A model generated the notes under the pieces. The model saw only the letters and a list, made by a program, of their open reading frames with translations. It did no database searches and was not told the DNA's origin. From assembly GCA_021848065.1 (NCBI GenBank), contig JAJZNA010000009.1:3271-67270 (forward strand): 64,000 nucleotides of DNA, read 5' to 3'. Both the position numbers and the translations under genes were made by a program. Shown here one piece after another: positions 45,675 to 64,000 of the stretch. The stretch comes from Candidatus Micrarchaeota archaeon. Its GTDB lineage: Archaea; Micrarchaeota; Micrarchaeia; Micrarchaeales; CABMGC01. Positions within the stretch are counted from its first letter, which is position 1, and each line of letters opens with the position of its first letter.

Positions 45675-45690
45675 GATTTGGTAGATTGAA

Positions 45691-45993
45691 ATGGTCGGTA
45701 CACAAAAAGGGGGGCAGGTTACCCCCTCTAAGACCCACAATTTAGCTATTGGGATAGCAATTGGACTTTTAGTATATGTTATATCCTTGGCCAGTGCATC
45801 GCGTTTTATGTTTTGCACCCGTGTAATGCTGTGTTATTTTGGGACATTATTTTTTGCATTAATTTTACCAATAATATTAATATTTCTCTCTAGTGCAATT
45901 TTGTCAAGATATTATAGGTATGCCTTTTCCAAAATAGTCTTAGTTGCCCTTTTATTGTGGTTGGTGTTAAACGCATTATCTTTTCATACATAA
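45691..45993 (+). CDS. Small polytopic membrane protein (3 TM), unknown function
   Basis: 100-aa ORF with three hydrophobic helices. No homology recognised. Confidence 0.35.
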   Translation: MVGTQKGGQVTPSKTHNLAIGIAIGLLVYVISLASASRFMFCTRVMLCYFGTLFFALILPIILIFLSSAILSRYYRYAFSKIVLVALLLWLVLNALSFHT

Positions 45994-46078
45994 CTGATGC
46001 TTATATCAAAACTAACGGTAATTATATGCATAAAAACAAAAGAAAAACCGTGTTTTATTACTCTTAATAGCACAAATA

Positions 46079-46298
46079 TATGTCATACCAAATGTTTATG
46101 CACTAACTATCTCGGGTTCAATGAATAGTAGCACTTGGGCAGGCTATTTGGCATCTGCCTCTGGATATTTTCCCGGTGCTTCAACTCCGCCATCAGTTAC
46201 CGCTATAAATGGTTCGTGGATTGTTGAAAATGCAATAACCACTAACGAAACCACTACGGGGCGCAATGGATAGGTCTACAAAACCTTCTTCAAGGCCC
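46079..46298 (+). pseudogene. Remnant of a third G1-like gene N-terminus (frameshifted/deleted)
   Basis: Translates as ...MNSSTWAGYLASASGYF...VTAINGSWIVENAI...GRNG*, then continues in the +1 frame as GAQWIGLQNLLQG. It shares ataaatggttcgtggattgttgaaaa with 44825-44850 and runs straight into promoter-repeat copy 2. Confidence 0.6.
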
Positions 46299-46336
46299 AC
46301 AAGATTTATATTGATTTATATGGAACATAATTTGGG
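46299..46336 (+). repeat. Copy 2 of the identical 38-nt upstream block
   Basis: Identical to 44098-44135. Ends 2 nt before ATG 46339. Confidence 0.85.
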
Positions 46337-46338
46337 GT

Positions 46339-46839
46339 ATGGGTATGTCCAGTATTGATAAGAAAGGTTCTTGGTGGAAATGGGTAGTTGGTTTTATAGT
46401 AATAATTATACTGTCAGCAGTATTTTTATCAGGTATATGGCTCCCATTTCAAGGTACACCTCTAAGCACAAGATGCATCACACAACAAAACTATACTTGT
46501 TCTGAGGTCGTTTATAGCCACAGTACTGGTAATTTAACACTAATTATAGGGCAGTCAACTAGATATAACTGGACCTCTGTTAGTATATATTTTGTACCGT
46601 TTGGTACGGCTAATGTTGGTGGTATACCTAGCACAATACTTGATGGTATTGCTTCAGGTAATGTTATAATGCAAGGTCTAGCAAGCGGATCTACCTCCTC
46701 TATTACATTGAGGATATCCTCCCCTTCAGTTACACAAAAGGGCACAGTAGCAAATGGATCTATATGGGCCAAATACACCACTTCAAATGGTGGGCCATAT
46801 TATGCTCAAATGGCTCTGCTAAAAACAAGTGCAACATGA
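46339..46839 (+). CDS. Small signal-anchored beta-rich protein, cassette partner A2
   Basis: Paralogue of the 44144 gene: KKG + TM, Cys pair, TGNLT, SIWAKYTTSNGGPYY. Confidence 0.65.
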   Translation: MGMSSIDKKGSWWKWVVGFIVIIILSAVFLSGIWLPFQGTPLSTRCITQQNYTCSEVVYSHSTGNLTLIIGQSTRYNWTSVSIYFVPFGTANVGGIPSTILDGIASGNVIMQGLASGSTSSITLRISSPSVTQKGTVANGSIWAKYTTSNGGPYYAQMALLKTSAT

Positions 46840-46890
46840 TGTGATTCAATAGTTTACTATACCTCTTTACATAGCATTTATTCAAAGCCT

Positions 46891-49800: not shown

Positions 49801-52800
49801 ACTTCAAATGAAACTTCAGTGGTGTTCAATTCCCTTGGTGATTATTCTTACCTTCTAATAGTTACTGATGAAGGTACAACAACCTCACCCAAAGCATCTA
49901 CAATATCATATCCTAACAACATCTCAGTAACTTATCCTATCATAAAGTTATTTCCTAAAAATGACACAATATTCAATAATCAATCTATTACTTTTACAAA
50001 TCTAACACTTCCAAACGACACCGTCTATACCTTTTCGTATAACATATCGCAATACGGAAAATCCGCTTCAACTTCAAACTATCTGGTATCTGGAAATTCG
50101 ATACGATTCTTCAATATAAACTCGCAGCATCCTCAAATTTTTAATGTATCAGAAACTGCTATGGACAGTTCAGGACATATCGGGTTATCGTCTAACAGCA
50201 CGATAACCGTCAACCCCCCATATTTCTGGTCGCCTCCAAATAAAATAACAGCGTACATAAATCTCACAATATACAATGGCCAGAACTACTCCATAGCCGC
50301 CAATACACAAATACCCATATATCTAAATGTTGTAAAATACAATGCATATGCTGCTAATAATTTGGTTAACTTCGAAGTGTTCAACGGATTTGACGAAGAA
50401 ATAGTTCCATCCTGGATTGAGAACCAGACATCAAATAGTATAGCCTCAAATGGAAACGCTTTGATATGGGTAAAACTGCCATATGCAATAGCTGCAAAAT
50501 CAAGTTCTGTAAATGCAATATCTATGGGATTTGCAAATATGTCTACATCCCTTTTAAATCACAATAATGATGGCATAGCTCCAGAGCTATATTGTTTGGA
50601 AGGGGGAACAGTATGCCCTCAGACTAGCTACGGCGAATACGATGACGGTGCTTCTGTATTCAATTTTTATAGTAACTTTTCAGGTTCACAACTAAACGAC
50701 CAATGGACAAATCCATATGGGTCATCACTGACAGTGGATAATGGATTAACGCTAGCCCCTGCAACTAGCACTGGTTGTAGTAATAATGGCGGTGAACTTC
50801 AATCTGCCAATTCTTTCTATCTACCAGGCAATACTGTAGACTATTACGGTATACTACGTGGGGGAAGTGGCGCACCATGGTCTTCTGCAGGCATGGGTGT
50901 ATTTTCATCTCCAAATACTTGTGGAGGCACTAGTCAAGGCGATATTGACTGGGGTGCGAGCGAACGGTATTACAGAGCCAATCCAACAAGTTCCGACGCC
51001 AACATAAACTTCCTTTCAGAAATTACTGTATGGTCGATAGGTAGTAATCCTTCAGGATATGTATTATATTATTCACAAGGCTATCATAATACGCAATCAC
51101 AGCCAACTTCAAGTAATTTATCTAATGGGAATGTGGTAATTTATCAGCAAGTCAATTCTGGAGGATCTGCAAATGCAACTTGGGTCAGGATAAGAAAATC
51201 GCTTCCTAACGGCATCAAGCCTGAGGTATACTTCGGCCCATTGCTATATGCCCCATTAAATAACACAAAAGTACATGTCACCATAACTCTCTCACCGACA
51301 TCGGAACTCACTGATGCAGGACAGTCAGTGACATTCTATAATACAACTACCGGCGGCACTCCACCATACGTCTTCGCATACTCCGTGTCCCAATTCGGAA
51401 CACCTGCATCAACCGGCAACTATCTCATATCAGGAAACTCCATAAAGTTCACAAATGCCGGCACGTACAACGTAATAGAAAACGTCACTGACAGCATAGG
51501 CAACATTGCACACTCATCCAACAGCACGATAACCGTAAACCTAAAAACATCTAATTCTTCAGTGTGCGACATAGTTCCTGCAGATTTTAATATTACTGCA
51601 TGTATCCCTGTTTCAATAAGCAATACGCAAAATAGTAAAATGAATATGGGAACCCAGATTGCAATCCCATTCCCTGCGAATTCGTATGAAACATATGAAG
51701 CTGCAAACATGATGAATGTATTCCTATACAATGCCAGCAGCGGCAATACTGCCCCATGCTGGCTTGAAGGCAATACCCTAAACGAGATACAGTCGCAGAA
51801 CCTTTACGCATCCGCAAATCTGCTTTACTGGTGTAAGATGCCCGATTCAATACCTGCACAGTCAACAGATACCAACTGGTACTTTGGTTTTGCCAATTCC
51901 TCTACAGATCTTTATGGCAATCCGATTGCACAACTTGGTGCTGCCCCACAACTCCACTGTGGCAGCCCGTACAACTGCCCCACATCTTCATATGCAGGCG
52001 CAGACAACGGCAATGCTGTATTCAGCTTCTACGATAATTTCTCAGGAACAACATTGAGATCCAAATGGGCAGGTAGCACTAATCCATCATATTGTACTTA
52101 TACTGTATCAAATGGGCTTGAGGTAACGGATTCCCATTCAAATGGTGGCAATATCTTCTGTCAAACCTACAGTCTGCCTTCGTTCACTCTTCCAATAATT
52201 TCGGAAGGATTGCTTGAAGGCACCACCAGTTCAACGTATACTTCGATAGGTGCAAATATGACTGCCACCTCACAGGCTAATACTAATTCATACTTGATGT
52301 GGTTCAACCCTTATCATGGCTGTGAAATCATGTCATCTGATGGGGAAATACTAGGTGATGTGTCTGGAATATCTTCGACATGCAATGAGAACGTTTGGTC
52401 AATTTATTCATTATTTGCATCTCCAAATTCCATCACCGCAACGTTGAACTATGATCTATCTGCATCTCAGAATACGAGTTCAGTGCCTGTACCCTCCCCA
52501 ACAAATATAATCACTTCTGTGGGTGAGTATCCTGGCACGGCAGTCTCAAAATACCAGTGGGTAAGGGCAAGAGTTCCACCTCCAAATAATGTCCAGCCAA
52601 CAATAAGTTATTCTTCTTTGAAGGTTGCAAATTCGCATGTATCCTTGCTATTCAGCTCAAATCCTGCAAATGCCGAATCTTCAATCAATGTGACTGCAAC
52701 CTGTGTGCCTAACACCGATACATGCGCAGTGCAATCTCCACTTGGAACAACCTTATGTTCGGGTACTGGTTCATGTGTATACCAGACATCAGCGCTGCCA

Positions 52801-54159
52801 GCAGGAAACTACACTTATTTTGCAAATGATCTCACCTTAAACCACAATGTAAAGGAAATTTTGCAGATGGTGGCATACTGCGGAAACACTCCTTCCGGAT
52901 TTAGCGTAGATACCTGCGTACCAATTAAAATAGATAACACCCAGACTAGCTCCATACTCCCGAACACCCAGATTGCAATTCCATTCCCTGCGAATTCGTA
53001 TGAAACATACGAAGCCGCAAACATGATGAATATATTCCTATACAACGCCAGCAGCGGCAAGACTGCTCCCTGCTGGCTTGAAGGAAATACCCTCAACGAG
53101 ATGCAGTCACAGAACCTTTACACGTCTGCAAACCTATTGTACTGGTGCAGGATTCCTGACTCAATACCTGCACAGTCAACAGATACCAACTGGTACTTTG
53201 GCCTTGCACCTTCCTCAACAGATCTTTATGGCAACTCCATTGCGCAACTCGGTGCCGCCCCACAGCTCTACTGTGGCAGCCCGTACAACTGTCCTGCATC
53301 ATCATACGCTGGCGCAGACAATGGCAATGCAGTATTCAACTTCTATGATAACTTCTCAGGGACCGTTCTAGGCTCCAAATGGTATGCCCGTGCAGGCACT
53401 GCGACTGTAAACAACAGCGTGACATTCACCATGGGCAGCCAGGACAGCTGGCTGTCATCCACAATTCCTATAAATGGCCTGACAAATGATACGGACTTCC
53501 TAGGATCAATTGCAGGAACTACCTCAGGATATGATGCGCAATGGGTCTGCTATAGCGAAGGAAGTGCATCTACCGACGGCTGCACAAGTTACGGATTTAA
53601 GATAGGAGGCAGCAGCGGCGCAGGAAGCGATCTTCTTTCATGTAGCGGCAGCCTATGTGAAACATACGGCACCATCTCGTCAGTGGCCACTCCTACTGCA
53701 ATATCCCTATTCTCAATATGGTCTGCAGGAGGGATGGCGTATGTCTCTGATAATTATGGCATCATAAGTTCCGTTAACAACTCGCAGTATCTCACATCCA
53801 ATATTGATTTTGGAGGATCTTCGACATTCACCTCGGGCATGAAGTACTTCCTATATTATGTAAGATCGAGGACGCAGCCGCCTAACAACGTGCAGCCGTC
53901 AATAAGTTATGGCACTTCAGGAAGCCTCAATGGGACCAAGGCTGCGGTTGCGGGAAGCACTGCACCATACCTAGGCAACGCGTATACTGTTTCAGGCCAA
54001 TCAACGCAGCTAACCGCGACCAATTCTTTGTCCGGAGGTGGCATGATAACAAGTTCCACTTCAACGGGTGGCTTTACTTCGATTAGCACGGTCACTACTG
54101 TGGCTCCTTCTAACAATGTGGGGACGGTGCAGAAATCGCACCATAAATCTTCAAAATAA
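46891..54159 (+). CDS. Giant secreted multidomain protein: peptidase G1-like domain + 4 x (DUF2341-like + LamG/ConA-like) modules + Ig/PKD-like repeats
   Basis: Uninterrupted 2,422-codon ORF (TTG 46891 or ATG 46912) with a hydrophobic N-terminus. G1 blocks PWAGWS, INGSWVV, QWIGIGG, LIQIGT, ADWEEES. DUF2341-like starts lie near 48040, 50245, 51590 and 52905. Each module ends in [WY]VR[IAS]R..PP[DN][GN]..P. Ig-like repeats carry G-G-[ST]-G-x-[YF]-x-Y-x-W. The C-terminal tail is S/T/G-rich and there is no TM anchor. Confidence 0.7.
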   Translation: MLIFSFAMCIISIAFATQNIQPEFGPWAGWSISASANGNSNLYTVNAINGSWVVQNTIPTGITDGFGSQWIGIGGVSSTPLIQIGTVSDWVVTCTNITCSGHTLYAPFAETVGLGGVIPFIYTMLMSISPGDKMQSSINLVNGSYCLMGSPCWKLYLNDTNKSKNSRPWITYITFAPNRTSADWEEESLQPFTMSLPLSNFKVAYFGPHFTKIPNTNQANINYSTNVSIGGYNYLLRNIFSEGGAGFANASNLYSDNSSFIVYEGPQLQLNGNINASSTLLNFGQNSTLIGLNATGGSGNYTYTWIEQKYVNANTSVTTNVNCYKGPSDNQMHYIFSPGCGVTPGIYLFTLEVTDNRTEVTQKSNTVSITVNPNPSVSLPTNISLYIPIRITNSQNSPTSAPFDQAVTVDSAEFSRYENANLSNIRFFYKNGTIVPSWLEGSYKSSFSNASTRTLYWLKLQNGIGAGQTIYVYMGFGPTGSMMFNSNNTGADPYGFSSSYPIYSYDDGSKIFPFYDNFAGNTLDSNWTAINGSGKETRQGYYVDNGLYQNQSSGAEVSIYTGNMFHYGQIVDFGGSIPSRYALPSGPPYYCGVGEGTNKEGFFNAANAFSDNVLTNGQAILMGYGVQEQSSLGCSGGGYDGKWLYDSELASNNLFEAPSASSILFGSNNETGISSNATAYLGSYNLNYAFQTANVAIINSAEGELLGLQMVNLASGYLHWVRIRNSPPDGIMPNVTIASIPTNLSFSNPITLQGYPDTLTAHVPFNDPVTLTIGDPIASINGTGSVNYTICSTKSTCLPAGTYTVTVNDTKQSVVENWTLVIEAPPNVIATPSKSTLDQGQQIYLSANISNGTGQYDYQWYNLTLGNSTAITGQTGKLFLFNAMKTGTFKYYVIANDIGTNETYSAKSNNVTVTIYPMLSVNITPAFRAMSPGGNDNILMHSIVNGGTGNFTYQWYNFSSGIFPVPMPALTSNETSVVFNSLGDYSYLLIVTDEGTTTSPKASTISYPNNISVTYPIIKLFPKNDTIFNNQSITFTNLTLPNDTVYTFSYNISQYGKSASTSNYLVSGNSIRFFNINSQHPQIFNVSETAMDSSGHIGLSSNSTITVNPPYFWSPPNKITAYINLTIYNGQNYSIAANTQIPIYLNVVKYNAYAANNLVNFEVFNGFDEEIVPSWIENQTSNSIASNGNALIWVKLPYAIAAKSSSVNAISMGFANMSTSLLNHNNDGIAPELYCLEGGTVCPQTSYGEYDDGASVFNFYSNFSGSQLNDQWTNPYGSSLTVDNGLTLAPATSTGCSNNGGELQSANSFYLPGNTVDYYGILRGGSGAPWSSAGMGVFSSPNTCGGTSQGDIDWGASERYYRANPTSSDANINFLSEITVWSIGSNPSGYVLYYSQGYHNTQSQPTSSNLSNGNVVIYQQVNSGGSANATWVRIRKSLPNGIKPEVYFGPLLYAPLNNTKVHVTITLSPTSELTDAGQSVTFYNTTTGGTPPYVFAYSVSQFGTPASTGNYLISGNSIKFTNAGTYNVIENVTDSIGNIAHSSNSTITVNLKTSNSSVCDIVPADFNITACIPVSISNTQNSKMNMGTQIAIPFPANSYETYEAANMMNVFLYNASSGNTAPCWLEGNTLNEIQSQNLYASANLLYWCKMPDSIPAQSTDTNWYFGFANSSTDLYGNPIAQLGAAPQLHCGSPYNCPTSSYAGADNGNAVFSFYDNFSGTTLRSKWAGSTNPSYCTYTVSNGLEVTDSHSNGGNIFCQTYSLPSFTLPIISEGLLEGTTSSTYTSIGANMTATSQANTNSYLMWFNPYHGCEIMSSDGEILGDVSGISSTCNENVWSIYSLFASPNSITATLNYDLSASQNTSSVPVPSPTNIITSVGEYPGTAVSKYQWVRARVPPPNNVQPTISYSSLKVANSHVSLLFSSNPANAESSINVTATCVPNTDTCAVQSPLGTTLCSGTGSCVYQTSALPAGNYTYFANDLTLNHNVKEILQMVAYCGNTPSGFSVDTCVPIKIDNTQTSSILPNTQIAIPFPANSYETYEAANMMNIFLYNASSGKTAPCWLEGNTLNEMQSQNLYTSANLLYWCRIPDSIPAQSTDTNWYFGLAPSSTDLYGNSIAQLGAAPQLYCGSPYNCPASSYAGADNGNAVFNFYDNFSGTVLGSKWYARAGTATVNNSVTFTMGSQDSWLSSTIPINGLTNDTDFLGSIAGTTSGYDAQWVCYSEGSASTDGCTSYGFKIGGSSGAGSDLLSCSGSLCETYGTISSVATPTAISLFSIWSAGGMAYVSDNYGIISSVNNSQYLTSNIDFGGSSTFTSGMKYFLYYVRSRTQPPNNVQPSISYGTSGSLNGTKAAVAGSTAPYLGNAYTVSGQSTQLTATNSLSGGGMITSSTSTGGFTSISTVTTVAPSNNVGTVQKSHHKSSK
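51652..52068 (+). repeat. Intragenic repeat copy A (DUF2341-like module core)
   Basis: Roughly 90% or more identical by eye to 52966-53382. The offset is exactly 1,314 nt (438 codons, in frame). Confidence 0.8.
52966..53382 (+). repeat. Intragenic repeat copy B
   Basis: See copy A. For example, cagattgcaat[c/t]ccattccctgcgaattcgtatgaaacata[t/c]gaagc[t/c]gcaaacatgatgaat. Confidence 0.8.
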
Positions 54160-54170: not shown

Positions 54171-54461
54171 ATGGCCAATATCTCCAAAATAACTGAGGAA
54201 CTTGGAAGGTCTCCAACCTTGGAAAACTGGGAAAGGTTCCGCAAGGCCCTTGCATCTTCCGGAATAAAATATTATTCAATAAAGTTTCCAGAGCCTAGTC
54301 TCAAGGGACTAGAAGACCTGCGCAGCGCGTATGCAGAGCTCTACGATTCAAGGGGAAGACCCATTTTCCGAGTGCCTATAATAATGTCATCAGGGAAAGG
54401 CGTACGCGGTGCGACTTCCTACCTTAAGGGCCTGCTGAACCTGAACAGGTGGCCATCATGA
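54171..54461 (+). CDS. Hypothetical small protein
   Basis: 96-aa ORF whose 3' end overlaps the cysD start by 13 nt. No motif recognised. Confidence 0.4.
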   Translation: MANISKITEELGRSPTLENWERFRKALASSGIKYYSIKFPEPSLKGLEDLRSAYAELYDSRGRPIFRVPIIMSSGKGVRGATSYLKGLLNLNRWPS

Positions 54462-55246
54462 TCAAGCAAGACCTCGCAGAGCTTGAAGAAAAGAGCATAT
54501 TCATACTGCGCGAGGCGCATTCACGTTTCAAGAATGTGGCAGCGCTCTGGTCCATGGGCAAGGACTCTACTGTGATGCTCTCAATTGCAAGGAAGGCCTT
54601 CATGGGAAAAGTCCCATTTCCCGTCATACACATAGACAATGGCATAGACTTCCCTGAGACGTACCAGTTCAGGGACGAGTTGGCTCGGAAATGGGGCCTG
54701 GACCTTATAGTTGCCCAGAGCGCCATAAAGCCTGAGATATCCGGGTTCGGATGCTGCGGTGCGAACAAGACAGAGGCGCTTAAGAGGGTTCTAGCCTCCA
54801 ACGGCTTCGACGCGCTCATAGTGTCCATAAGAAGGGATGAGAATGGCGTACGTGCAAAGGAAAGGGTAATCTCGCCAAGGGACAAGAACTTCAAGTGGAA
54901 GTATCGGGACCAGCCTGCAGAGGTCTGGGACAGCTATTCATTCAGGCAGGAATCCGGAGGCCATGCACGCGTACACCCTCTGCTGGACTTCAACGAGCTT
55001 GATATATGGGATTACATCCGTAAGGAGCGTATTCCCGTAAATCCACTATACTATTCAAGGAATGGGAAGAGATACCGCAGCCTCGGATGCACCCATTGCA
55101 CAAGCCCTATAAGCTCCGAAGCCAAGAGTGTAAAGGGCATAATATCTGAACTCGAGTCAAGCAGGCTTGAGGAGCGCTCCGGAAGGGATCAGGACAAGGA
55201 GCGCGAATACGTGATGCAGCGGCTAAGATCACTCGGATACATGTAA
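54449..55246 (+). CDS. cysD: Sulfate adenylyltransferase subunit 2 (CysD, PAPS-reductase fold)
   Basis: PP-loop-like LWSMGKDSTVML, then FPVIHIDNGIDFPETYQFRDE, then C-terminal ERSGRDQDKE. Confidence 0.8.
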   Translation: MAIMIKQDLAELEEKSIFILREAHSRFKNVAALWSMGKDSTVMLSIARKAFMGKVPFPVIHIDNGIDFPETYQFRDELARKWGLDLIVAQSAIKPEISGFGCCGANKTEALKRVLASNGFDALIVSIRRDENGVRAKERVISPRDKNFKWKYRDQPAEVWDSYSFRQESGGHARVHPLLDFNELDIWDYIRKERIPVNPLYYSRNGKRYRSLGCTHCTSPISSEAKSVKGIISELESSRLEERSGRDQDKEREYVMQRLRSLGYM

Positions 55247-55247
55247 A

Positions 55248-56450
55248 CTACCCACGGCTAAAGCCTGTGGGCTTTCCATCAAGATGATTTGAATGTTGCA
55301 CAGCAACCAACAAACCACTTTCATCGGACATCTGTCTAAGGTCGTTTACAAGACCTTCCCTATTGGAAATCTGGAAGGGTTTATGGTTAGTAGAATCCTT
55401 CCGCTCCAAAAGGCATTTCAATGCAATATTCTTGCTTGCATTTCTGTCGGAGTTCACGACAACTCCGCATTCCTTGCATTCAAAGAGGGCATAATTATTG
55501 CTACTGTGTCCCTTACCAACAGCACCGCAGTGGTTACAGAACTTGGAGGTATGCCACGAATCAACGATATTCAGCGTAATCTTCTTATCAAAACAACGAG
55601 AAGTAAGAATCTCCCGAAACTTCCTGAATGGCATCCTCATGACTTCCTTGTTGAATCTTCTGCCCTTCAGTTTGAATCTCTTGAGGTTCTCAATGGAAAT
55701 ATCTGCATTATATTCTCCTGCAAGGTCAAGAATCCCCTTAACCATCTGCCCTATATTAGTATCAACGAAGTCATATTCACGAGTCTTCAATCTTCGGAGG
55801 GCAGAGAGATTATTGAAACCCTGCATTACGGAGCGTCTTCGCATAATTCCCTTCCTCTTCATCCAGATATGCAATCCAAAGTAATCCTGATGCAGAACCT
55901 TGCCTTTATCGGAAAGGACGGAAACGGCGATGCGCTTCGCATTGAAATCAATCCCCATAACATTTCTTTTGGCAGGCAATTCAACCTCATCTTTGGAAAG
56001 ATATGCGACAATCTGGAGGTTAGGGGTCAGCCCATAGGTCTTGCACGTCCATCCACTCTTCAGAAGGTCGGAGTATCTCTGGAAGTTGCGGTTCTTGATA
56101 AAGGGTATTGCAATCCTGTTTCTCGGATATATTCCGAGTTCAATGAAGTCGAAAGATTTAGTGGAGAAGGCTTTACAGTTTCGAGGAATGTTGAACTTGA
56201 CGGTTATGCCTTTGGACTGGTTCTTGCTTCTCCAGACTGCACGTTCCAGAGAAGCATAAACTTGAACATTGAATCCTGTTCTTATTTTGGATTCGGCAAA
56301 CGTCTTCCTATGAAAATCCATGAAGGTATTGCAAAAATCCCTGTCTTCCCAGAGTTTATTGAACTCGGAAGTGGCTTTCAAAGAGAACTCTTCCAAGAAC
56401 CTTCTCTTTCTGGTAGTTGCATCAATCTGCAAAAGAACAGCACGTTTCAT
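55248..56450 (-). CDS. tnpB: TnpB (IS605 OrfB-type RNA-guided endonuclease)
   Basis: RuvC-I GIDFN, RuvC-II ISIENL, zinc finger CNHCG...CKECG, RuvC-III NSDRNASKNIA. The ATG at 56450 (MKRAVLLQ) is preferred; the ORF extends to TTG 56504. The C-terminal GKPTGFSRG is read through the end hairpin. Confidence 0.85.
   Translation of the reverse strand: MKRAVLLQIDATTRKRRFLEEFSLKATSEFNKLWEDRDFCNTFMDFHRKTFAESKIRTGFNVQVYASLERAVWRSKNQSKGITVKFNIPRNCKAFSTKSFDFIELGIYPRNRIAIPFIKNRNFQRYSDLLKSGWTCKTYGLTPNLQIVAYLSKDEVELPAKRNVMGIDFNAKRIAVSVLSDKGKVLHQDYFGLHIWMKRKGIMRRRSVMQGFNNLSALRRLKTREYDFVDTNIGQMVKGILDLAGEYNADISIENLKRFKLKGRRFNKEVMRMPFRKFREILTSRCFDKKITLNIVDSWHTSKFCNHCGAVGKGHSSNNYALFECKECGVVVNSDRNASKNIALKCLLERKDSTNHKPFQISNREGLVNDLRQMSDESGLLVAVQHSNHLDGKPTGFSRG
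55251..55271 (+). repeat. tnpB-element end hairpin (3' side of tnpB; candidate RE / omega-RNA scaffold end)
   Basis: CCCACGGC-TAAA-GCC(T)GTGGG. Confidence 0.6.
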
Positions 56451-56509
56451 CCTACTAACCAAATAAATATGGATAACGATGTATATGATGCTTATGCTCG
56501 ACAATTCCC

Positions 56510-56530
56510 CCCGCCCGTGAACGGTGTGGG
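56510..56530 (+). repeat. tnpB-element end hairpin (5' side of tnpB; candidate LE)
   Basis: CCCGCCCG-TGAA-CGG(T)GTGGG. Confidence 0.6.
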
Positions 56531-56557
56531 CTTCCTTGTCGAGATTAGGTGATTATT

Positions 56558-57760
56558 ATGAAGATCAACCGTGTTGCAGTGCTTGGAAACAAGGACCACG
56601 GCAAGTCAACGCTCATAGGAAACCTGATGATCTCCACAGGATCTACTTCTCAACAGCGCATAACTGATGCAAAAGAGGCCAGTGCCAGGTTTGGCCAGAG
56701 ATTCGAGCCTGCATTTATCCTCGATAGTTTCATGGAGGAGCGCAAAGGCGGATTCACCCTGGATTCAACGCGCGTGCAGATGGTGCATGGCGGCCGTGCG
56801 TTCGAATTCATAGACCTTCCAGGCCACGAGGAGCTTATGAAGAACATGCTTAGCGGGGCTTCCAATGCCGAAAGTGCCCTAGTCCTAATATCCGCAGACC
56901 CTAAGGAAGGGATAAGCGAGCAGACAATGCGCCACGTGTTCCTGGCTTCCATGCTTGGGATGGGAAGCCTCACATTCGCAGTTAACAAAATGGATGCCGC
57001 TGGATACAGCCAGCAGGCCTTCGAAGAGATAAAAGCAAGAATGTCATCATTCATTTCAGGAATAGGCTTCTCAGGCAGATCTGCCTTTGTGCCCATATCT
57101 GCATATGCTTCTGAGAATCTAATCGGGCTTTCCAGAAACATGCCGTGGTACTCCGGGCAGAGCCTTATGCAGACGCTTGCCTATGGCTCAAGATCACAAG
57201 TACGGAACCGGAAAGATCCTCTTAGGCTTTCCATACAGGGCACGCTTGATGGCGATCTTATCATCGGCAAGATGCTTTCGGGCAGCCTGAGGCAGGGGCA
57301 GTCGGTTGTTTCCATGCCCCAGAGCGTAAAAGGAAAAGTGTCCAAGCTTTATGTGGGGAATAAGCCTGCAAAGAGTGCAATTGCCGGGCAAAACGTTGCC
57401 ATTCGTACAGATATGAAAGCCAATCCACCCATACCCGGATCCGTTGTTTATGGGGCCAAATCCGCACCTAGCTTTGGGGACAGTTTCAGTGCCATGGTGT
57501 TCGCCACTTCAAGACTGGGAAACGATGTTGAAATGCGAGTAAACGGAACTTCAGTTCCATGCCGCATGCAGGTAGGGCACTATCTGTATCCTCTCAATGT
57601 ACGGCCCCGTTCTGGTGGCGTAAAGCCACTATGCGCTGCCAGAGTAACCATAACGCCATCCAGGCCAATTGTGGCAGAGCCATTCAGGAAATCCAGGGAG
57701 CTTGGAAGATTCTCCATATACTACCACGACAGATTCGCTGGCATAGGCATAATGCTTTAA
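56558..57760 (+). CDS. cysN: Sulfate adenylyltransferase subunit 1-like GTPase (CysN / EF-1alpha family)
   Basis: G1 GNKDHGKSTLIGNLM, G3 DLPGHEELMKNM, G4 NKMD, beta-barrel domains II/III. Genomic partner of cysD. Start at ATG 56558, after the SD-like aggtga. Confidence 0.7.
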   Translation: MKINRVAVLGNKDHGKSTLIGNLMISTGSTSQQRITDAKEASARFGQRFEPAFILDSFMEERKGGFTLDSTRVQMVHGGRAFEFIDLPGHEELMKNMLSGASNAESALVLISADPKEGISEQTMRHVFLASMLGMGSLTFAVNKMDAAGYSQQAFEEIKARMSSFISGIGFSGRSAFVPISAYASENLIGLSRNMPWYSGQSLMQTLAYGSRSQVRNRKDPLRLSIQGTLDGDLIIGKMLSGSLRQGQSVVSMPQSVKGKVSKLYVGNKPAKSAIAGQNVAIRTDMKANPPIPGSVVYGAKSAPSFGDSFSAMVFATSRLGNDVEMRVNGTSVPCRMQVGHYLYPLNVRPRSGGVKPLCAARVTITPSRPIVAEPFRKSRELGRFSIYYHDRFAGIGIML

Positions 57761-57792
57761 ACTTGCTCACCTCAATATATCATGTTGTTTCT

Positions 57793-58971
57793 ATGAAGAT
57801 AGTGGTGCTAGGCGCTGACGGATATCTGGGATGGCCCCTCTCACTGAGGCTGATGGCAAGAGGCCATGACGTGGTGGGTGTTGACAACTTCGCCACAAGG
57901 AAGGCCGTGAAGGAAGTAGGTTCTGATTCAGCCATCCCCATACTTAGCATGCCTGACCGCATAAAGGCCGCGAAAGAGATCCACGGCTTCAAGATGAAGT
58001 TCCACGAAGGGGACGTTACAAAATACGAGCTTCTTCACAAGGTCCTAAAGGAAGAAAAGCCTGACGCAGTGGTCCATTTCGCAGAGCAGCGCTCAGCGCC
58101 ATACTCAATGATTGACGTAAAGCATGCAGCCTATACTCTATCAAACAACATAGTAGGTTCTGTCAACCTGATTTATGCCATAATGGCGGTAGATCCAAAT
58201 ATTGCAAGCGTGAAGATGGGCACGATGGGTGAGTTCGGGACGCCCAACTTCGACATACCCGAATCTGCGTTCGTGGATGTGGAGATAAACGGAAGGAAGG
58301 ACCGCATAACAACCCCAAAGTTTGCCGGTTCATGGTATCATTGGACAAAGGTGCACGACACCAACAACCTTCTCTTCGCCAACAAGGTGTGGGGAATAAC
58401 TGCGACAGACATAATGCAGGGGCCCGTATACGGCACCAGGACAAAGGAGATAACGGACGAGAGGCTTCACACAAGATTCGACTTCGACCAGGCGTGGGGC
58501 ACGGTGGTGAACCGTTTCTGCGTGGAGAGCGTACTTGGCATGCCTCTAACGGCGTATGGGAAGGGGGGCCAGATAAGGGGATACCTATCCCTAGAGGACA
58601 GCGTAACGGCACTGTCCTTGCTGATCGAGAATCCCCCTAAGAAAGGTGAGTACCGCGTTGCAAACCAGTTCGTGGAGCTTTTGAGCGTCAACAATATCGC
58701 ATCACTTGTGCAGAAGACTGCAAAAGGGCTTGGCATAAATGTTGAAATATCTCACGTTGACAATCCAAGGGTAGAGGCGGATACGCACTACTACAATCCT
58801 GAAATCAAAGTCCTTCCATCACTGGGATTCCACCCGAGCCTGAAGATGGCAGATATACTCGGCCAGGTGATAGGTGACCTTATGCGCTACAAATCCAGGA
58901 TGGAAAAGTTCAAGGGCAGCATAATGCCGCAGACTAGGTGGAGGGATCATCCAAGCGCTGACACCAGTTGA
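57793..58971 (+). CDS. sqdB: UDP-sulfoquinovose synthase (SQD1/SqdB/Agl3 family SDR)
   Basis: MKIVVLGADGYLGWPLSLRL Rossmann start. Blocks VVHFAEQRSAPYSM, GEFGTPN, GSWYHWTKVHD, QGPVYGT, RFDFDQAWGTVVNRF are collinear with SQD1-type enzymes. Start at ATG 57793, not 57559. Confidence 0.8.
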   Translation: MKIVVLGADGYLGWPLSLRLMARGHDVVGVDNFATRKAVKEVGSDSAIPILSMPDRIKAAKEIHGFKMKFHEGDVTKYELLHKVLKEEKPDAVVHFAEQRSAPYSMIDVKHAAYTLSNNIVGSVNLIYAIMAVDPNIASVKMGTMGEFGTPNFDIPESAFVDVEINGRKDRITTPKFAGSWYHWTKVHDTNNLLFANKVWGITATDIMQGPVYGTRTKEITDERLHTRFDFDQAWGTVVNRFCVESVLGMPLTAYGKGGQIRGYLSLEDSVTALSLLIENPPKKGEYRVANQFVELLSVNNIASLVQKTAKGLGINVEISHVDNPRVEADTHYYNPEIKVLPSLGFHPSLKMADILGQVIGDLMRYKSRMEKFKGSIMPQTRWRDHPSADTS

Positions 58972-59115
58972 CCATTTGCATTATAGCCAACAGCAAAATA
59001 ATATGTCAAACTGCCTGGGCACCTACGCAAACAAGTTGTCCCATTACTGAAAATGTTTTTGTATACGACGATAGTAAAAGCCCGCACGTTCCCAACGTGA
59101 ATTAAGTCCGAGTAC

Positions 59116-59460
59116 TCATCTATTGCTTGATAATTGTCTGACTAATTTAGTGTGTTGCTCTATTGACTGCTTTAGTAGAGCATCATAAAAATGTATTAAC
59201 TCATTTACCAAATGATTTTCTGTATTAAGCCTGAACATGTCCTGCTTCCCTATTCTTCTAGTTTTTACTATTATCTCATTTGCGAGCAGTTGTGACCAGA
59301 TGGTGTTCAATGTGTTATATGATATTTCTGAGTTATCTGCCAATTCCTTCTTAGAATAATCAAACTCCCTAGAAGTAAGTAAGAAATCTAGGACCTTAGA
59401 TAATGGGGAATTACCTACGAGCCTTATGAATGTGCTTTCTTCTGCCACTGCTATCAGCAC
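59116..59460 (-). CDS. Winged-helix transcriptional regulator (small archaeal type)
   Basis: SKVLDFLLTSREFDYSKKELADNSEISYNTLNTIWSQLLANEIIVKTRRIGKQDMFRL is a wHTH pattern. The gene is AT-rich. Confidence 0.55.
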   Translation of the reverse strand: MLIAVAEESTFIRLVGNSPLSKVLDFLLTSREFDYSKKELADNSEISYNTLNTIWSQLLANEIIVKTRRIGKQDMFRLNTENHLVNELIHFYDALLKQSIEQHTKLVRQLSSNR

Positions 59461-59522
59461 TTACTAGTTAAGTGCCCAACATATATAAATATTTGCATTA
59501 TATAGCATATAACTGTGAAACA

Positions 59523-59792
59523 ATGAAACTTTCACATGAACAGCATCTTAAGATAAAAACAGTTATTCTGAGGAAGCTGGTTATTCACAATATTTGGGGT
59601 GCAAAACACACTAATTATGAATTTGTCCAAAAGGGATTGCCAAAGGACCTAAGAGGAAGCGCCAAGGATGTAGCAGATGACCTTATTAAAAATGGAATAT
59701 TGCTTTCACATCCAACTGGCTATGGTATGCAGATATCACTAAATCCAGACATGGCTAATGAGATCAAGGCAGTGCTAGGGATTGAGAACTAA
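59523..59792 (+). CDS. Hypothetical small protein
   Basis: 89-aa ORF from ATG 59523 (MKLSHEQ), divergent from the wHTH gene. Confidence 0.4.
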   Translation: MKLSHEQHLKIKTVILRKLVIHNIWGAKHTNYEFVQKGLPKDLRGSAKDVADDLIKNGILLSHPTGYGMQISLNPDMANEIKAVLGIEN

Positions 59793-59850
59793 GGCATATC
59801 CTGTGATAAACTCTGATGATGGACTCCACAACTAGGTCAAAACCCTCTTT

Positions 59851-60618
59851 TCAGAGGTTGTCAAAAGAGTAGTTCAGTGCGTTATGGTAGCTCTCAGTGT
59901 CTCCTACATTGAGCCATTTCTCTTTCTCCAGCAATATGCCGTACACCTTCCCTCCAGACCCTATTATGCCCTGTATTCCGTCGGTAAGCTGCAGCTCTCC
60001 CACCGGGTTTATCCTCTTAAGGCTTTCGAATATCTTGCTGGAGAATATGTAAACTGCAGATATCGCCATGTTTGACTTCGGCTTCTCTGGTTTTTCTTCA
60101 ACTCCCAAGATCCTGAATGCTTTGTGCCCCATGTATTGCTCTTCGGAGCCTACCTCTGCAACTCCATACCTCTTCTTCGGGTTTTCGAATTTCCTCAGAA
60201 GCAGAACTGCATCTGCGCCTTTTTCCGAGAACAGGTCCAAGGCCTCGGCATAGCCTCCCGTAAGCACACCGTCGTCAGCATGCACTACTATGGCGTCGCT
60301 TCCGGCAAAATCCTCCCCTCTGAGCACTGCATCTCCGAATCCAAGTGGCTTGTTCTGAAACACGAACGTGACTCCCCTCTCAAACATGTAGTCCATCAGA
60401 AGCGACCTGTGTTTTCCCACTACAAAACAGAACTTCTTGACGCCAGTGGCTACTAGCGCGTCCATTATAAGGTCAGCTACCGGAACTGCTATCCTTTTGC
60501 CATCCTCCGTCTTGAAAAGCGGAAGGAGGCCTTTAGGCACCACATAAGTGACACGGCGCATCCTGCTGCCTTCTCCTGCTGAGGTTATTATGCATTTTGG
60601 GACAATGTTTTTTGGCAT
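59851..60618 (-). CDS. Sugar-1-phosphate nucleotidyltransferase (glucose-1-phosphate uridylyl/thymidylyltransferase-like)
   Basis: N-terminal SAGEGSRMR...PKGLLPL signature and the GFGDAV motif. Confidence 0.75.
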   Translation of the reverse strand: MPKNIVPKCIITSAGEGSRMRRVTYVVPKGLLPLFKTEDGKRIAVPVADLIMDALVATGVKKFCFVVGKHRSLLMDYMFERGVTFVFQNKPLGFGDAVLRGEDFAGSDAIVVHADDGVLTGGYAEALDLFSEKGADAVLLLRKFENPKKRYGVAEVGSEEQYMGHKAFRILGVEEKPEKPKSNMAISAVYIFSSKIFESLKRINPVGELQLTDGIQGIIGSGGKVYGILLEKEKWLNVGDTESYHNALNYSFDNL

Positions 60619-60741: not shown

Positions 60742-61866
60742 GTGGCGAAGTCAAGACTAAAATATTTATGCGTCTATGTTAAAAGCATAGTCGTGGGCAA
60801 CTTGAAAAAATCCATGAATGCTGGTTTATTTGTAATATTTGCATCACTTGTTATACTATCTTTGATTGGCATACTGTCAGTTCTGTCCAACGGCCCGGCT
60901 TCGTCACCTACAGCTACAATATTCAACGCCCCAACGCACCAAATATTTGTTACAAACTGGGCATCAGATTCTGTTTCTGTGATAAATGCTAGCAACTACT
61001 CAACAGTTAAAACTATCACAGGTTTTAAAAAACCACTATCAATAGCTCCACTCCAAGGTAAGGGTGAAATATTTGTAGCTAACTCTGGGAGCAATACTAT
61101 CTCTGTAATAAGCACTACTACTGACACAATAAGTTTTAACATAACTGTAGGTCAAAATCCTGTAAGTATGGCATTTACCCCAGATAGCAAACTTGCATAC
61201 GTCACAAATTCGAATAACACCGGCAACATAAGTACTATTTCTGTAATAAATACAACTACCTACAATGTGGTCAATACCATAAGGCTTCAGGGTGGTAGTG
61301 CTGGGGGGATAGCAATTTCGCCAGATGGCTTGCAAGCGTTTGTGGCAATTGTTGGAAGCAAGTATATTGCAATAATAAACACATCAAATAGCGGTGTGAA
61401 CTATCTATATCTTGGTGAAAAAGCACACACTCCTTGCGATGCCTATGCGTCACCAAACAGCGCATACATTTTCATCGGTTCTTGCAATGCCAATGGTGTG
61501 TATATAATAAATACCATCACTGATACGCTGATTGGAAACATTACTAATATAGGTGGCGGTTCTGACCCCTACGGATCCGAAATTACAGTTTCTCCGGATG
61601 GCAGCAAATTGCTTATCTCTAATGTAAGTTCAATAAGCAATAGCCCATCTGGCACAGTATCTGTTATTGATACGTCTAATTATTCTATTTATAAAATAAT
61701 AAACAATATTGGATCTCCGTACGCACTAGAATTCTCACCAAATGGTTCTAGGATATTCATAACTGATTATGAGACCGCTTCGCTATATGTATTGAATGCC
61801 ACTACTTACTCTGATATAAAAAGAATACACGTAGGGCTTCTTCCAAGCGGCGTTGCTATGACTTAA
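60742..61866 (+). CDS. Signal-anchored YVTN-family beta-propeller repeat protein
   Basis: N-terminal TM GLFVIFASLVILSLIGILSVL, then about 7 repeats of the ~40-aa YVTN pattern (FVTNWASDSVSVIN, VANSGSNTISVIS, YVTNSNN..ISVIN, ...). Alternative start at ATG 60814. Confidence 0.75.
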   Translation: MAKSRLKYLCVYVKSIVVGNLKKSMNAGLFVIFASLVILSLIGILSVLSNGPASSPTATIFNAPTHQIFVTNWASDSVSVINASNYSTVKTITGFKKPLSIAPLQGKGEIFVANSGSNTISVISTTTDTISFNITVGQNPVSMAFTPDSKLAYVTNSNNTGNISTISVINTTTYNVVNTIRLQGGSAGGIAISPDGLQAFVAIVGSKYIAIINTSNSGVNYLYLGEKAHTPCDAYASPNSAYIFIGSCNANGVYIINTITDTLIGNITNIGGGSDPYGSEITVSPDGSKLLISNVSSISNSPSGTVSVIDTSNYSIYKIINNIGSPYALEFSPNGSRIFITDYETASLYVLNATTYSDIKRIHVGLLPSGVAMT

Positions 61867-61959: not shown

Positions 61960-64000
61960 ATGGGTAAATATAGTTTGCATCTGGGTCTCATAACCCTATT
62001 TTTATTTAGTATTTTTGCTGGACGCAGTATGGCTATCAGCTATAGAAGTATTAATAGTACAAGCACTGCAACAGTATCTGGTGGCAATATCGGTGGCACC
62101 GCTGCTCCCTATTATATATTCGTAATCTACAATAGTTCAAGCGCACAACCCATTTCAGGCGCATCCGTCATAGCAAAATTCGTTACACCTTCAGGAACAT
62201 ATGGGCCAAGCCACTGTACTACAAGTTCCGTATATTATAACCTTCCAGGGTATTCCTTTGTTACTCTTCAAGCTCCTCCTGCAGGTGATACCCCAACCGT
62301 ACCATCAACCGGCAACCCTGCTTTTTATCTGGTCTCATGTTATATTGGTTTCGGTATCAATATAGGTACAGGTACGGTATATTATTCAGTCACTGCGAAT
62401 GGCTATCACAATTCCCCAACTTACAACTTCACTGCAGATACTAACAATCCATATCCAAATCAAGAAACATTTGTACTTACCCCAATGACTTCCTTAAACT
62501 CGCCTGCAACAACTTCAACAACCAGTACGACTACTGCAACAACAACCTCCACTAGTACCACAACCATTTCGACTACGTCTACAGTTTCAACATCAACTTC
62601 AACGACTACAACAATACCTACTTCGACTACAACAGTACCACCGATCCAGTCCGCAAATATCTCTGTAACAATAAGTCCATCTACAGCACAAGTTCCTTTG
62701 ACATTAATGGCAAGTAGCTTGACAGAACACAACGCACCAATTGTAATAACTATCAGGAACACCGGTGAACTCGGGTCAAACTGGAGCCTTGCAAATTATC
62801 CAAGATATGTGTCTTTTTCACAAACTAGTGGCACAATCGAAAGAGTGTCTTCAACGAACAGAACTCCAACAATAGAGATAAGTGGAACAATAAATGCTAC
62901 AGAAATCCCAAAAAGTGACATAGGCACACCAATGAATATTAGTATTGAGGTTCTTAGCAGCGGCATTCCATCTGGGGGCGTTACAAAATATTTGCGTATT
63001 GAGGCAACCAATGTTACTTGTGGTTACGTCGGTTATTATTGCGGAAGCATAAACCAAACTTTTCTGGCAGTGGAAATGGATATGGCACTATACAAGAACA
63101 AGTCTTCGGGTCTCTATACTTTTGTATGGGGCATACACCCATACCAACACTATGGTGTAATCCTATTTAATCGATCTCAGGCATATTCAGTTGCAAATCA
63201 GGTATTAATAAGTCTAACCAACGATGGTTTTAACACAACAATAACTAATTCAACAACCTCTTCTGCTGGCATACTAACAGAAACGAATTATACCAGTTTC
63301 AGTGCTTTCTCACCTGACCAACGTCTATTTTTAAATGTAGCACAGACTGTGGTAGAAGGTTTCATTGCAGGTGCGCCTTTTTCAGATCTTCTCACCACGT
63401 CAGCCATCTCTCTGGATTCAGGCATACCTTTTCTTGGCACTACTTATGATGTTGTAACCTTTATCAAAGAACCACATTCAGTAATGAATGGAATAGCTGT
63501 GGCTTCAGATGCTGTAAATATCGGTGCACAGTTTGTTCCAGATGGCACATCTTTATATAACTCAACCTGTTTTGTCCTAGATCCGGCAGGTTGCTACAAT
63601 GGATATGTAACTGGTACCATTACACGAGCTTATGCTCGCGATTTCAGTTTTGTGAATTCCAATACCATATATGTATATCAAAATAATGAAAAAAGACACA
63701 ATGTATTATACACCCTATATCCCGACCAACAGCTGGTAATTGAACTTCATAATGTCACTTTCCCATACAATTGCACCAGTTATGATACTTGCAACACTGC
63801 CACCCCTCAAAACCCATATCCTCTTGACTTTTATCCTGTATATGTGGAAGGAAATGACGCCTGGCTTCTCACTAATTCTATAATATATAATTTCGGTGGA
63901 CTAAATGGCACTTATGTTGGGGATAAGTATGTCCCCGGCGGACCTGCATTTATCACATCTTGTGGTGGTCTACCTACAATATTGCACCCTGGTAAATTGG
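61960..64000 (+). CDS. Large secreted glycoprotein with Thr/Ser-rich linker (3' end beyond window; absent from the ORF track)
   Basis: Translated by hand from ATG 61960 with no stop through 63999 (680 codons). Signal-like MGKYSLHLGLITLFLFSIFAG, TTSTTSTTTATTTSTSTTT linker at about 62497-62640, and many NxS/T sequons. Confidence 0.65.
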   Translation, partial: MGKYSLHLGLITLFLFSIFAGRSMAISYRSINSTSTATVSGGNIGGTAAPYYIFVIYNSSSAQPISGASVIAKFVTPSGTYGPSHCTTSSVYYNLPGYSFVTLQAPPAGDTPTVPSTGNPAFYLVSCYIGFGINIGTGTVYYSVTANGYHNSPTYNFTADTNNPYPNQETFVLTPMTSLNSPATTSTTSTTTATTTSTSTTTISTTSTVSTSTSTTTTIPTSTTTVPPIQSANISVTISPSTAQVPLTLMASSLTEHNAPIVITIRNTGELGSNWSLANYPRYVSFSQTSGTIERVSSTNRTPTIEISGTINATEIPKSDIGTPMNISIEVLSSGIPSGGVTKYLRIEATNVTCGYVGYYCGSINQTFLAVEMDMALYKNKSSGLYTFVWGIHPYQHYGVILFNRSQAYSVANQVLISLTNDGFNTTITNSTTSSAGILTETNYTSFSAFSPDQRLFLNVAQTVVEGFIAGAPFSDLLTTSAISLDSGIPFLGTTYDVVTFIKEPHSVMNGIAVASDAVNIGAQFVPDGTSLYNSTCFVLDPAGCYNGYVTGTITRAYARDFSFVNSNTIYVYQNNEKRHNVLYTLYPDQQLVIELHNVTFPYNCTSYDTCNTATPQNPYPLDFYPVYVEGNDAWLLTNSIIYNFGGLNGTYVGDKYVPGGPAFITSCGGLPTILHPGKL

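Follow-up and report, generated by a model that had tools for sequence, protein, structure and literature searches.

The genes considered here lie in a 64,000-nucleotide stretch of contig JAJZNA010000009.1 (assembly GCA_021848065.1, Candidatus Micrarchaeota archaeon), which we call the window and in which positions 54171-60618 hold a cluster that combines genes of the sulfate-activation type with genes of the sulfo-sugar type. Its first gene (54171-54461, plus strand) encodes a 96-amino acid (aa) protein, p96, and the stop codon of this gene overlaps by 4 nucleotides (nt) the ATG of a gene for a short-type CysD protein, a PP-loop ATP pyrophosphatase presumed to be the catalytic subunit of a GTP-coupled ATP sulfurylase (54458-55246, plus strand; 262 aa according to the database gene call, with a GTG at 54449 as an alternative start). 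These are followed by a TnpB-only insertion element of the IS200/IS605 kind (55247-56548, minus strand; tnpB open reading frame (ORF) 55248-56450 or 55248-56504), by a gene for an EF1A/CysN-like GTPase that is presumed to be the G-protein subunit of the sulfurylase (56558-57760, plus strand; 400 aa), and by a gene for a predicted UDP-sulfoquinovose synthase of the Agl3/SQD1/SqdB type (57793-58971, plus strand; 392 aa). The right end of the cluster contains a gene for a small winged-helix (wHTH) protein (59116-59460, minus strand; 114 aa) and a small ORF with no family match (59523-59792, plus strand; 89 aa in the gene call, 106 aa from a GTG), which are parts of the same 880-bp insertion, and finally a gene for a sugar-1-phosphate nucleotidyltransferase of family PF00483 (59851-60618, minus strand; 255 aa). 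The cysD gene, the cysN-like GTPase gene, the short-chain dehydrogenase/reductase (SDR) gene and the nucleotidyltransferase gene named in the original prediction, which was made from the DNA alone, are all intact ORFs at those places; p96, the TnpB element and the two small ORFs had been omitted from that list. All of the ORFs in the cluster are complete and intact, and the same arrangement is present at 99.96-100% identity on six metagenome contigs from several samples. Sulfoquinovose synthesis and CysDN are each textbook systems. For comparison we use a set of 27 loci that carry the CysD module (window included, with 8-10 kb on either side where the contig allows) and a set of 80 related synthase loci; individual loci are given L numbers and individual CysD homologues P numbers.

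The SDR matches the NCBIfam equivalog model NF041015 over its full length (positions 1-384 of 384) with 636.2 bits, where the cut-off is 575, and scores 366 bits against Arabidopsis SQD1 (1qrr) as compared to at most 44 bits against the epimerases and dehydratases in the PDB; the GalE and RmlB models of NCBIfam give it 44-54 bits. It thus does not group with the UDP-glucose 4-epimerases or dehydratases, and its original placement among the SQD1/SqdB/Agl3-type enzymes is borne out by the equivalog score, by its catalytic residues and by its position in a tree. The residues R101, T145, M146, Y182, H183 and K186 (SQD1 numbering) are all identical in the window protein (HMMER alignment to 1qrr_A), and near its N-terminus the NAD motif GxxGxxG has the form GADGYLG. 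In a neighbour-joining tree built from SQD1 and 80 relatives taken from genomes, the window protein belongs to a Micrarchaeota clade whose sister is the Sulfolobales (Agl3) clade, with the Thermoplasmata, Nitrososphaeria and bacterial clades further out. Judged by its sequence, the product of 57793-58971 is a true UDP-sulfoquinovose synthase.

Biochemical work has shown that Agl3 of Sulfolobus acidocaldarius makes the UDP-sulfoquinovose used for the N-glycan, Agl2 being the pyrophosphorylase, and the residues conserved in the window synthase include those whose replacement inactivated Agl3 (PMC4388408). The window protein belongs to the same synthase family, keeps the H, R101, T, M, Y182 and K186 residues, and, like Agl3, is encoded next to an NDP-glucose pyrophosphorylase gene. 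On the other hand, the window has neither an Agl1-like transferase nor an Agl4-like kinase such as are found in the S. acidocaldarius Agl branch, its host is Micrarchaeota-like, and it has a sulfate-activating module directly upstream of the synthase gene, which the Sulfolobales and Thermoplasmata loci do not. The plant and bacterial enzymes SQD1 and SqdB (1QRR, 1I24) share the active-site residues and are 45% identical over 380 aligned columns; they serve synthesis of the lipid SQDG, whereas the context in the window is one of surface glycoproteins and no lipid transferase of the SQD2/SqdX type was identified there. On four contigs labelled Verrucomicrobiia (L009, L010, L012 and L023) there are synthase/transferase pairs that have 76-79% identity to those of Micrarchaeota and nest inside the Micrarchaeota clade; they reflect either a recent inter-domain transfer or mis-binning, and the length of the L010 contig (1.83 Mb) argues for transfer.

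The nucleotidyltransferase has a PF00483 match at 1.5e-29 and is below the cut-off of all specific NCBIfam models. A homologue is convergent with the synthase gene in 62 of the 80 related loci, those of Sulfolobales included, whose transferases are 56-63% identical to that of the window, and the pair matches the Agl2 (NDP-glucose pyrophosphorylase) and Agl3 gene arrangement described for S. acidocaldarius (PMC4388408). By this context it is a putative Agl2-like UDP-glucose pyrophosphorylase that would feed the synthase, and the pair is an ordinary archaeal Agl3/Agl2 sulfoquinovose pathway in a newly noted lineage; in the searchable literature we found no description of Micrarchaeota with sulfoquinovose or with a sulfate adenylyltransferase. 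In the relatives 25-40 nt lie between the two genes, whereas in the window they are separated by the 880-bp cassette, neither of whose two ORFs (59116-59792) was found in the relatives' loci (the wHTH ORF is absent from L007-L086). The wHTH ORF has weak matches, far below cut-off, to HTH_Crp_2 (E 0.006) and to the sulfite-sensing repressor BigR (E 5e-4), and the small ORF has no match in Pfam or NCBIfam scans.

The CysD-like protein matches PF01507 (1.3e-40) and the NCBIfam subfamily model NF003587 'CysD' (300 bits, cut-off 195), and is below the stricter models TIGR02039 (subfamily; 226 bits, cut-off 397) and NF009214 (equivalog; 229 bits, cut-off 413). It scores 184 bits against Pseudomonas syringae CysD (1zun_A) as compared to 38 bits against adenosine 5'-phosphosulfate (APS) reductase, it has the PP-loop motif SMGKDS, and its C-terminus is of the CysD type in the alignment to 1zun_A. 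It resembles bacterial CysDN (E. coli; P. syringae 1ZUN) in that the genes for a PP-loop CysD and an EF-Tu-family GTPase are adjacent and coupled in translation and in that the C-terminal ...GY(F/M) tail of CysD is conserved in both. It differs from them in being 262 rather than about 300 aa long, in lacking a 29-aa insertion, in having four invariant cysteines, in the conserved extra genes of the module (p96 and a ribbon-helix-helix (RHH) gene) and in the absence of a CysC fusion.

The four cysteines, C99, C100, C211 and C214, align (HMMER) with C139, C140, C228 and C231 of the P. aeruginosa APS reductase 2goy, which we take to be the four ligands of its [4Fe-4S] cluster. The flanking motifs are also alike (CCGANK and CCGIRK around the first pair; LGCTHCT and IGCEPCT around the second). 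The four are invariant in 120 of the 120 closest homologues, which are about 262 aa long and 68-77% identical to the window protein; E. coli CysD has K, H, C and L at these positions as well as the 29-aa insertion that is missing from the short type. Among the nearest 150 representatives of 50%-identity clusters (from 1.8 billion proteins), 45 have all four cysteines and another 38, mostly fragments or partly aligned sequences, have one of the two pairs, while all representatives with the long insertion are without the four cysteines. Thus the short-type CysD probably binds a [4Fe-4S] cluster. The protein shares with the iron-sulfur APS reductases (CysH type, 2GOY) the PF01507 fold, the CC...CxxC ligand set and the CCGxxK and GCxxCT motifs. 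We considered and rejected the idea that it is itself an APS reductase: the C-terminal catalytic cysteine of APS and 3'-phosphoadenosine 5'-phosphosulfate (PAPS) reductases (ECGLH) is absent, the protein ends in ...LRSLGYM and has no fifth cysteine, the reductase model TIGR02055 gives 65 bits where the cut-off is 235, and the similarity to CysD is much higher. P0262 and P0272 are fusions of the same type of CysD with APS kinase, which implies free APS as its product, and P0399 is one with a sulfatase-family domain plus DUF4214 (Sulfatase-DUF4214-CysD). The CysD scores, these fusions and a TauE/SafE anion permease gene that takes the place of p96 in the divergent loci L103-L106 lend indirect support to a predicted function of the CysD-GTPase module in the activation of sulfate to APS. 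In the searchable literature we found no paper describing a CysD with a 4Fe-4S cluster or this short CysD family.

The GTPase has a GTP_EFTU domain (PF00009 at 1.7e-34), a D2 domain and an eEF1A C-terminal domain, with intact G1, G3 and G4 motifs (GNKDHGKS, DLPGH and NKMD), and is below every NCBIfam cut-off: the EF-1-alpha models give 233 and 203 bits, the CysN models 203 and 182 bits. Its PDB matches are archaeal EF1A (188 bits) and CysN 1zun_B (158 bits). The indels form a mosaic of EF1A-like and CysN-like states; the DHGKS of G1 and the C-terminal LGRF are EF1A-like, and the absence of EFEAGMS, an insertion of EF1A, and the spacing of NKMD-xx-Y are CysN-like. It differs from CysN in its EF1A-like G1 and C-terminus as well as in failing the CysN cut-offs. 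In a neighbour-joining tree with E. coli CysN, Aeropyrum pernix EF1A, E. coli EF-Tu and an aIF2-gamma as references, the family is monophyletic in 149 of 200 bootstraps, and in 168 of 200 (84%) it forms with E. coli CysN a group that leaves out A. pernix EF1A (one reference each), so that the proposed grouping with CysN has moderate support. The GTPase diverges much faster than CysD (42-65% as compared to 68-87% identity for the same genome pairs). It adjoins the CysD gene in 22 of the 27 loci (within about 20 nt in L018, L087 and L091; only the insertion element separates the two in the window), and for this reason, as well as the grouping with CysN, we rejected the possibility that it is a translation-factor paralogue unrelated to sulfur.

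p96 is encoded in 15 of the 27 loci, window included, usually immediately upstream of a short-type CysD, and is a conserved partner of CysD. Its alignment has 10 invariant columns and no cysteine. It has no Pfam match (a Pfam scan of 14 members at E up to 5 gave scattered noise), and its AlphaFold2 model, built from a three-sequence alignment, has a pLDDT of 69 and no Foldseek match in the PDB with E below 0.4. Upstream of p96 there is often a gene for an RHH-like protein of about 75 aa (L090 7457-7690, L014 4986-5204 and 14 other loci), which is absent from the window. The C-terminus of this protein (LKALGYM or LRALGYI) mimics the CysD tail (LRSLGYM), and the RHH-like protein might be a sensor-regulator or a competitor of CysD for its site on the GTPase. 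The module of short, probably iron-sulfur CysD, EF1A-like GTPase and p96 is probably a variant of CysDN that has not been described previously.

The core order across the 27 loci is RHH (about 75 aa) - p96 - CysD - GTPase. Five loci, L007, L011, L013, L014 and L018, all from metagenome-assembled genomes (MAGs) labelled Micrarchaeota or 'Marsarchaeota', retain p96-CysD-GTPase-(0 to 2 genes)-synthase-transferase. The synthase/transferase pair is therefore beside the module in six loci, window included. Protein identity is only 42-77% (42-61% for the GTPases), and the divergence is proportionate across the genes of the cluster. For the synthase, CysD, GTPase and transferase alike, the closest relatives come from MAGs labelled Candidatus Micrarchaeota, Micrarchaeia or 'Marsarchaeota', whose names suggest acid mine drainage sediments. 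A separate link between a synthase and sulfate activation is found in the Bathyarchaeia locus L078, where the order is synthase - GT2 - APS kinase.

The most frequent other neighbours of the module are proteins of the PF01663 alkaline-phosphatase superfamily (8 loci, among them L014, L018, L091, L098 and L100), family GT4 glycosyltransferases (8 loci) and sulfatase-family PF00884 proteins (5 loci: L094, L099 and L102-L104); a GalE-like epimerase and a phosphoglucomutase also recur. The PF01663 and PF00884 proteins are the commonest neighbours of the four-cysteine CysD module, and APS kinase and PAPS sulfotransferase are not nearby. Such neighbours may use or recycle activated sulfate, and those fused or adjacent to CysD may be APS-dependent sulfuryl transferases for archaeal glycans. 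A GalE-like 4-epimerase gene lies in or beside the cluster in L014 (7515-8459), L104 and L111 (10621-11586), and its product could turn UDP-sulfoquinovose into a sugar of the 6-sulfo-galactose ('sulfofucose') type. Sugars of this type have been reported for the N-glycans of Thermoplasma.

The TnpB element in the window is an insertion, since the cysD and GTPase genes abut or overlap in L013 and L014. With the cysD stop on one side and the GTPase start on the other, it sits exactly in the junction and disrupts neither ORF. Its TnpB is above the cut-off of PF07282 (54.6 bits) and below that of NF040570 guided_TnpB (83 bits, cut-off 100), and there is no TnpA. The element (1302 bp) aligns end to end at 70.5% nt identity with one in L013 (6309-7628) that occupies a different position of the same operon, between the RHH gene and p96. 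The left ends of both copies are preceded by TGTAA, the subterminal palindrome-like ends are common to both, and each copy terminates (...GAGATTAGGTGATTA; ...CTTGTCGAGATTAGGTGATTA; AGGTGATTA) 1-4 nt ahead of the ATG of the next gene. The AGGTGA that the element end provides is 9 nt ahead of the GTPase ATG, with its last base 3 nt ahead, and the L013 copy likewise provides one for p96; with a terminus so close to the start codon, the element end seems to supply the Shine-Dalgarno sequence, and so the ribosome-binding site, for the gene downstream. In its TNB zinc-ribbon TnpB, its want of TnpA, its imperfect subterminal palindromes (alike at both ends) and its second diverged copy at another site it resembles the TnpB-only IS200/IS605 elements (IS1341-like); it differs from them in sitting exactly in an operon junction with its end serving as the predicted ribosome-binding site of the next gene, and in the sub-threshold guided_TnpB score. 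An apparent 'empty site' in L004, a locus identical to the window, was rejected, as it reflects only an antisense ORF of tnpB. Selfish genes occur in different genomes at the cysD/GTPase junction, which is a hotspot for them, with LAGLIDADG endonuclease genes in L090 (8794-9618) and L101 (7984-8787) and a Vsr-like gene in L007 (8317-8715), and the CysD homologue P0291 contains an intein with a LAGLIDADG domain.

The cluster is flanked by genes for secreted proteins rich in N-glycosylation sequons, as had been noted originally: the density is 3.1-3.2 N-X-S/T per 100 aa on both sides, whereas the window proteins with a predicted cytoplasmic role mostly have 0-0.7. Directly upstream is the gene for a giant secreted surface protein (46891-54159, plus strand; 2422 aa, DUF2341 repeats and PF10102) with 76 N-X-S/T sites, or 3.1 per 100 aa, and to the right is that for a secreted YVTN/YncE-type beta-propeller protein (60742-61866, plus strand; TIGR02276 repeats and PF21783) with 12 sites, or 3.2 per 100 aa. 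Further upstream, 29941-33009 encodes an S-layer protein (PF05124) with 25 sequons, and 27327-28997 encodes a membrane GT2 transferase. A search for the WWDYG motif of AglB gave a single match, which is interrupted by stop codons. The giant gene (GC 0.39-0.46), whose 3' 2.6 kb is shared by paralogous genes with 92-94% identity, forms a low-GC island directly upstream of the cluster, and the island of surface-protein genes as a whole (44000-54159, GC 0.37-0.46) has been inserted between the module and genes for DnaG primase and threonyl-tRNA synthetase (36713-38116 and 39050-40732). Both of the latter are also upstream of the module in L014, as is the synthetase gene in L018 and L090, and the window is syntenic with these relatives.

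At least three paralogous giant sequon-rich surface-protein genes are recognizable (window 44000-54159 and 62029-64000; L111 3158-9076; L115 1-1425), and they have in common a 3' block of about 2.6 kb with 85-94% identity that carries along the start of p96. In L111, which is from the same samples, such a paralogue precedes a fusion of p96 codons 1-25 with a TnpB remnant, after which come GT4, epimerase, phosphoglucomutase and HhH-GPD genes, the rest of the ancestral cluster (compare L007 and L014), while another copy has behind it a full p96 paralogue (77% identity) ahead of a nuo operon. The truncated p96, the TnpB remnant and the remaining cluster genes of L111 suggest that in this population the cluster has been pulled apart by duplicated surface-protein genes and insertion elements. 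Elsewhere in the window, 9677-11701 encodes a large radical-SAM protein that has a zinc ribbon (PF23545) at its N-terminus and a tail rich in Cys and Gly, and that may be a tetraether-lipid-synthase-like enzyme; if true, this would be unexpected in a supposedly lipid-dependent DPANN archaeon.

How might these genes work together? We think it plausible, if unproven, and give it moderate confidence, that the locus consists of two joined modules in which sulfate activation is coupled to sulfo-sugar synthesis. The module at 54171-57760, consisting of p96, CysD with its probable [4Fe-4S] cluster and the deep-branching CysN/EF1A-like GTPase, would be a short-type GTP-coupled ATP sulfurylase that activates sulfate to APS. 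The module at 57793-60618 would be the archaeal sulfoquinovose supply pair, in which the nucleotidyltransferase would make UDP-glucose and the synthase would turn UDP-glucose plus sulfite into UDP-sulfoquinovose. Sulfur would then flow from the former module to the latter, and the most likely destination of the sulfoquinovose would be the N-glycans of the sequon-rich surface proteins encoded nearby. Because the two modules lie in one gene cluster, sulfate activation is probably dedicated at least in part to the synthesis of sulfo-sugars or sulfo-glycans. In the searchable literature we found no paper that links sulfoquinovose with cysD and cysN.

Between APS and the sulfite that the synthase uses, one chemical step is missing from the locus. 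As originally noted, there is no APS or PAPS reductase in the window, where tblastn with E. coli CysH, CysC and CysI matches only the cysD gene; in a search of the window plus 101 loci the same queries matched only cysD genes and one APS kinase (L078). Reductase genes are thus linked neither to the module nor to archaeal synthase genes in general, and little can be concluded for the genome from the lack of one in the window. How sulfite reaches these synthases in vivo is, by the published account, not known (PMC4388408). For the step from APS to sulfite there must be another gene outside the locus, a contribution of the environment or a host, or an activity that is not yet recognized.

Several observations weigh against the coupled explanation. 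No APS kinase, APS/PAPS reductase or sulfite reductase gene was found in the window or at any of the 27 CysD-module loci, and the link from APS to the sulfite substrate is therefore missing at all of them. The CysD protein fails the curated CysD equivalog cut-off, and the CysN models give the GTPase scores that are far from their cut-offs (TIGR02034, 182 as compared to 336; NF003478, 179 as compared to 590); the GTPase tree rests on one CysN and one EF1A reference, and the raw distances are smaller to EF1A. None of about 60 Thermoplasmata and Sulfolobales synthase loci has a CysDN module nearby, and conversely the module occurs without a synthase in L087-L092, L094, L098, L100, L101 and L104. 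RHH, GT4, PF01663, sulfatase and TauE genes were sought in the window and none was found, and the one epimerase gene there is distant (23312-24382). The 'dedicated CysDN' of the original prediction thus survives in part: the p96-CysD-GTPase-synthase order in five other MAGs agrees with it, but the pair is not a canonical CysDN (the CysD is short with four cysteines and the GTPase is below the cut-offs), and 'dedicated' fits poorly with the synthase loci that have no module and the modules that have no synthase.

The last of these points bears on an alternative that we consider unlikely, namely that the two modules are neighbours and nevertheless independent, with APS made for another use such as O-sulfation of glycans by alkaline-phosphatase-superfamily proteins or sulfate salvage, with sulfite supplied by the host, the environment or a distant reductase, and with the adjacency reflecting a general island of surface-glycan genes. 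The loci without a synthase make up about half of the CysD-module loci with enough flanking sequence, and their neighbours are PF01663 or PF00884 proteins and a GT4 transferase, which indicates a broader or different use of APS; the 8 loci with PF01663, 5 with PF00884 and 8 with GT4 proteins beside the module, and the natural Sulfatase-DUF4214-CysD fusion in P0399, point in the same direction. Independence would also agree with the want of a nearby reductase at any of the CysD-module loci, and with archaeal synthase loci generally being without a sulfite-generating gene, so that a synthase would normally use a distant supply. A loose island does not, however, lead one to expect the synthase gene directly after that of the GTPase in six genomes (window included) whose GTPases are only 42-61% identical. 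Moreover, alkaline-phosphatase-family partners are absent from the window, where the synthase is the only sulfur-using enzyme beside the module.

A second alternative, which we regard as very improbable, dispenses with a CysH-type reductase altogether: the four-cysteine CysD, the GTPase and p96 would be a self-contained machine for sulfate activation and reduction, or would hand sulfur over to the synthase at the level of sulfite. It draws on the CC...CxxC ligands and the CCGxxK and GCxxCT motifs that this CysD has in common with iron-sulfur APS reductase, on the lack of a separate reductase in the 27 loci, and on the acknowledged ignorance of how sulfite is delivered in vivo (PMC4388408). On the other hand, the catalytic C-terminal cysteine (ECGLH) is absent and all four of the cysteines present are predicted ligands, p96 has no cysteine and the GTPase no invariant one, and the fusion of the same CysD type to APS kinase implies that free APS is the product. 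Moreover, the cluster in APS reductase is not known to be the source of electrons. The narrower proposal that an iron-sulfur CysD/GTPase/p96 complex hands sulfite-level sulfur to the synthase, giving a CysH-independent route from sulfate to a sugar with a C-S bond, seems to us scarcely less doubtful.

The least probable alternative, that the cluster is a decaying remnant in which mobile elements have uncoupled the operon and left the sulfate module non-functional, might be read from the TnpB element that splits cysD from the GTPase gene, the 880-bp foreign cassette that splits synthase from transferase, the missing upstream RHH and downstream GT4, epimerase and PF01663 genes, and the p96 cut after codon 25 by a TnpB remnant in L111 from the same samples, but the five ORFs of the cluster are full length with PP-loop, four cysteines, G1-G4 and catalytic triad intact, their divergence from the relatives is proportionate across genes, the element end gives AGGTGA ahead of the GTPase ATG (and likewise for p96 in L013), and the arrangement is identical on six contigs from several samples.

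The coupled explanation, in which the CysD module would provide activated sulfate for the synthase pair, has consequences beyond this locus. The supply of sulfite to the synthases is an acknowledged gap (PMC4388408), and a compact five-gene system makes the question testable. The four-cysteine CysD family is large, with dozens of 50%-identity clusters, and combines a short CysD that has the exact ligand set of APS reductase with a GTPase intermediate between EF-1-alpha and CysN. CysN has been proposed to originate from archaeal EF-1-alpha, and this family and its GTPase bear on that proposal as well as on the evolutionary link between CysD and APS reductase. Finally, the locus suggests that DPANN archaea with their reduced genomes spend resources on sulfonated or sulfated glycans at the cell surface, and such glycans may play a part when these archaea attach to their hosts.

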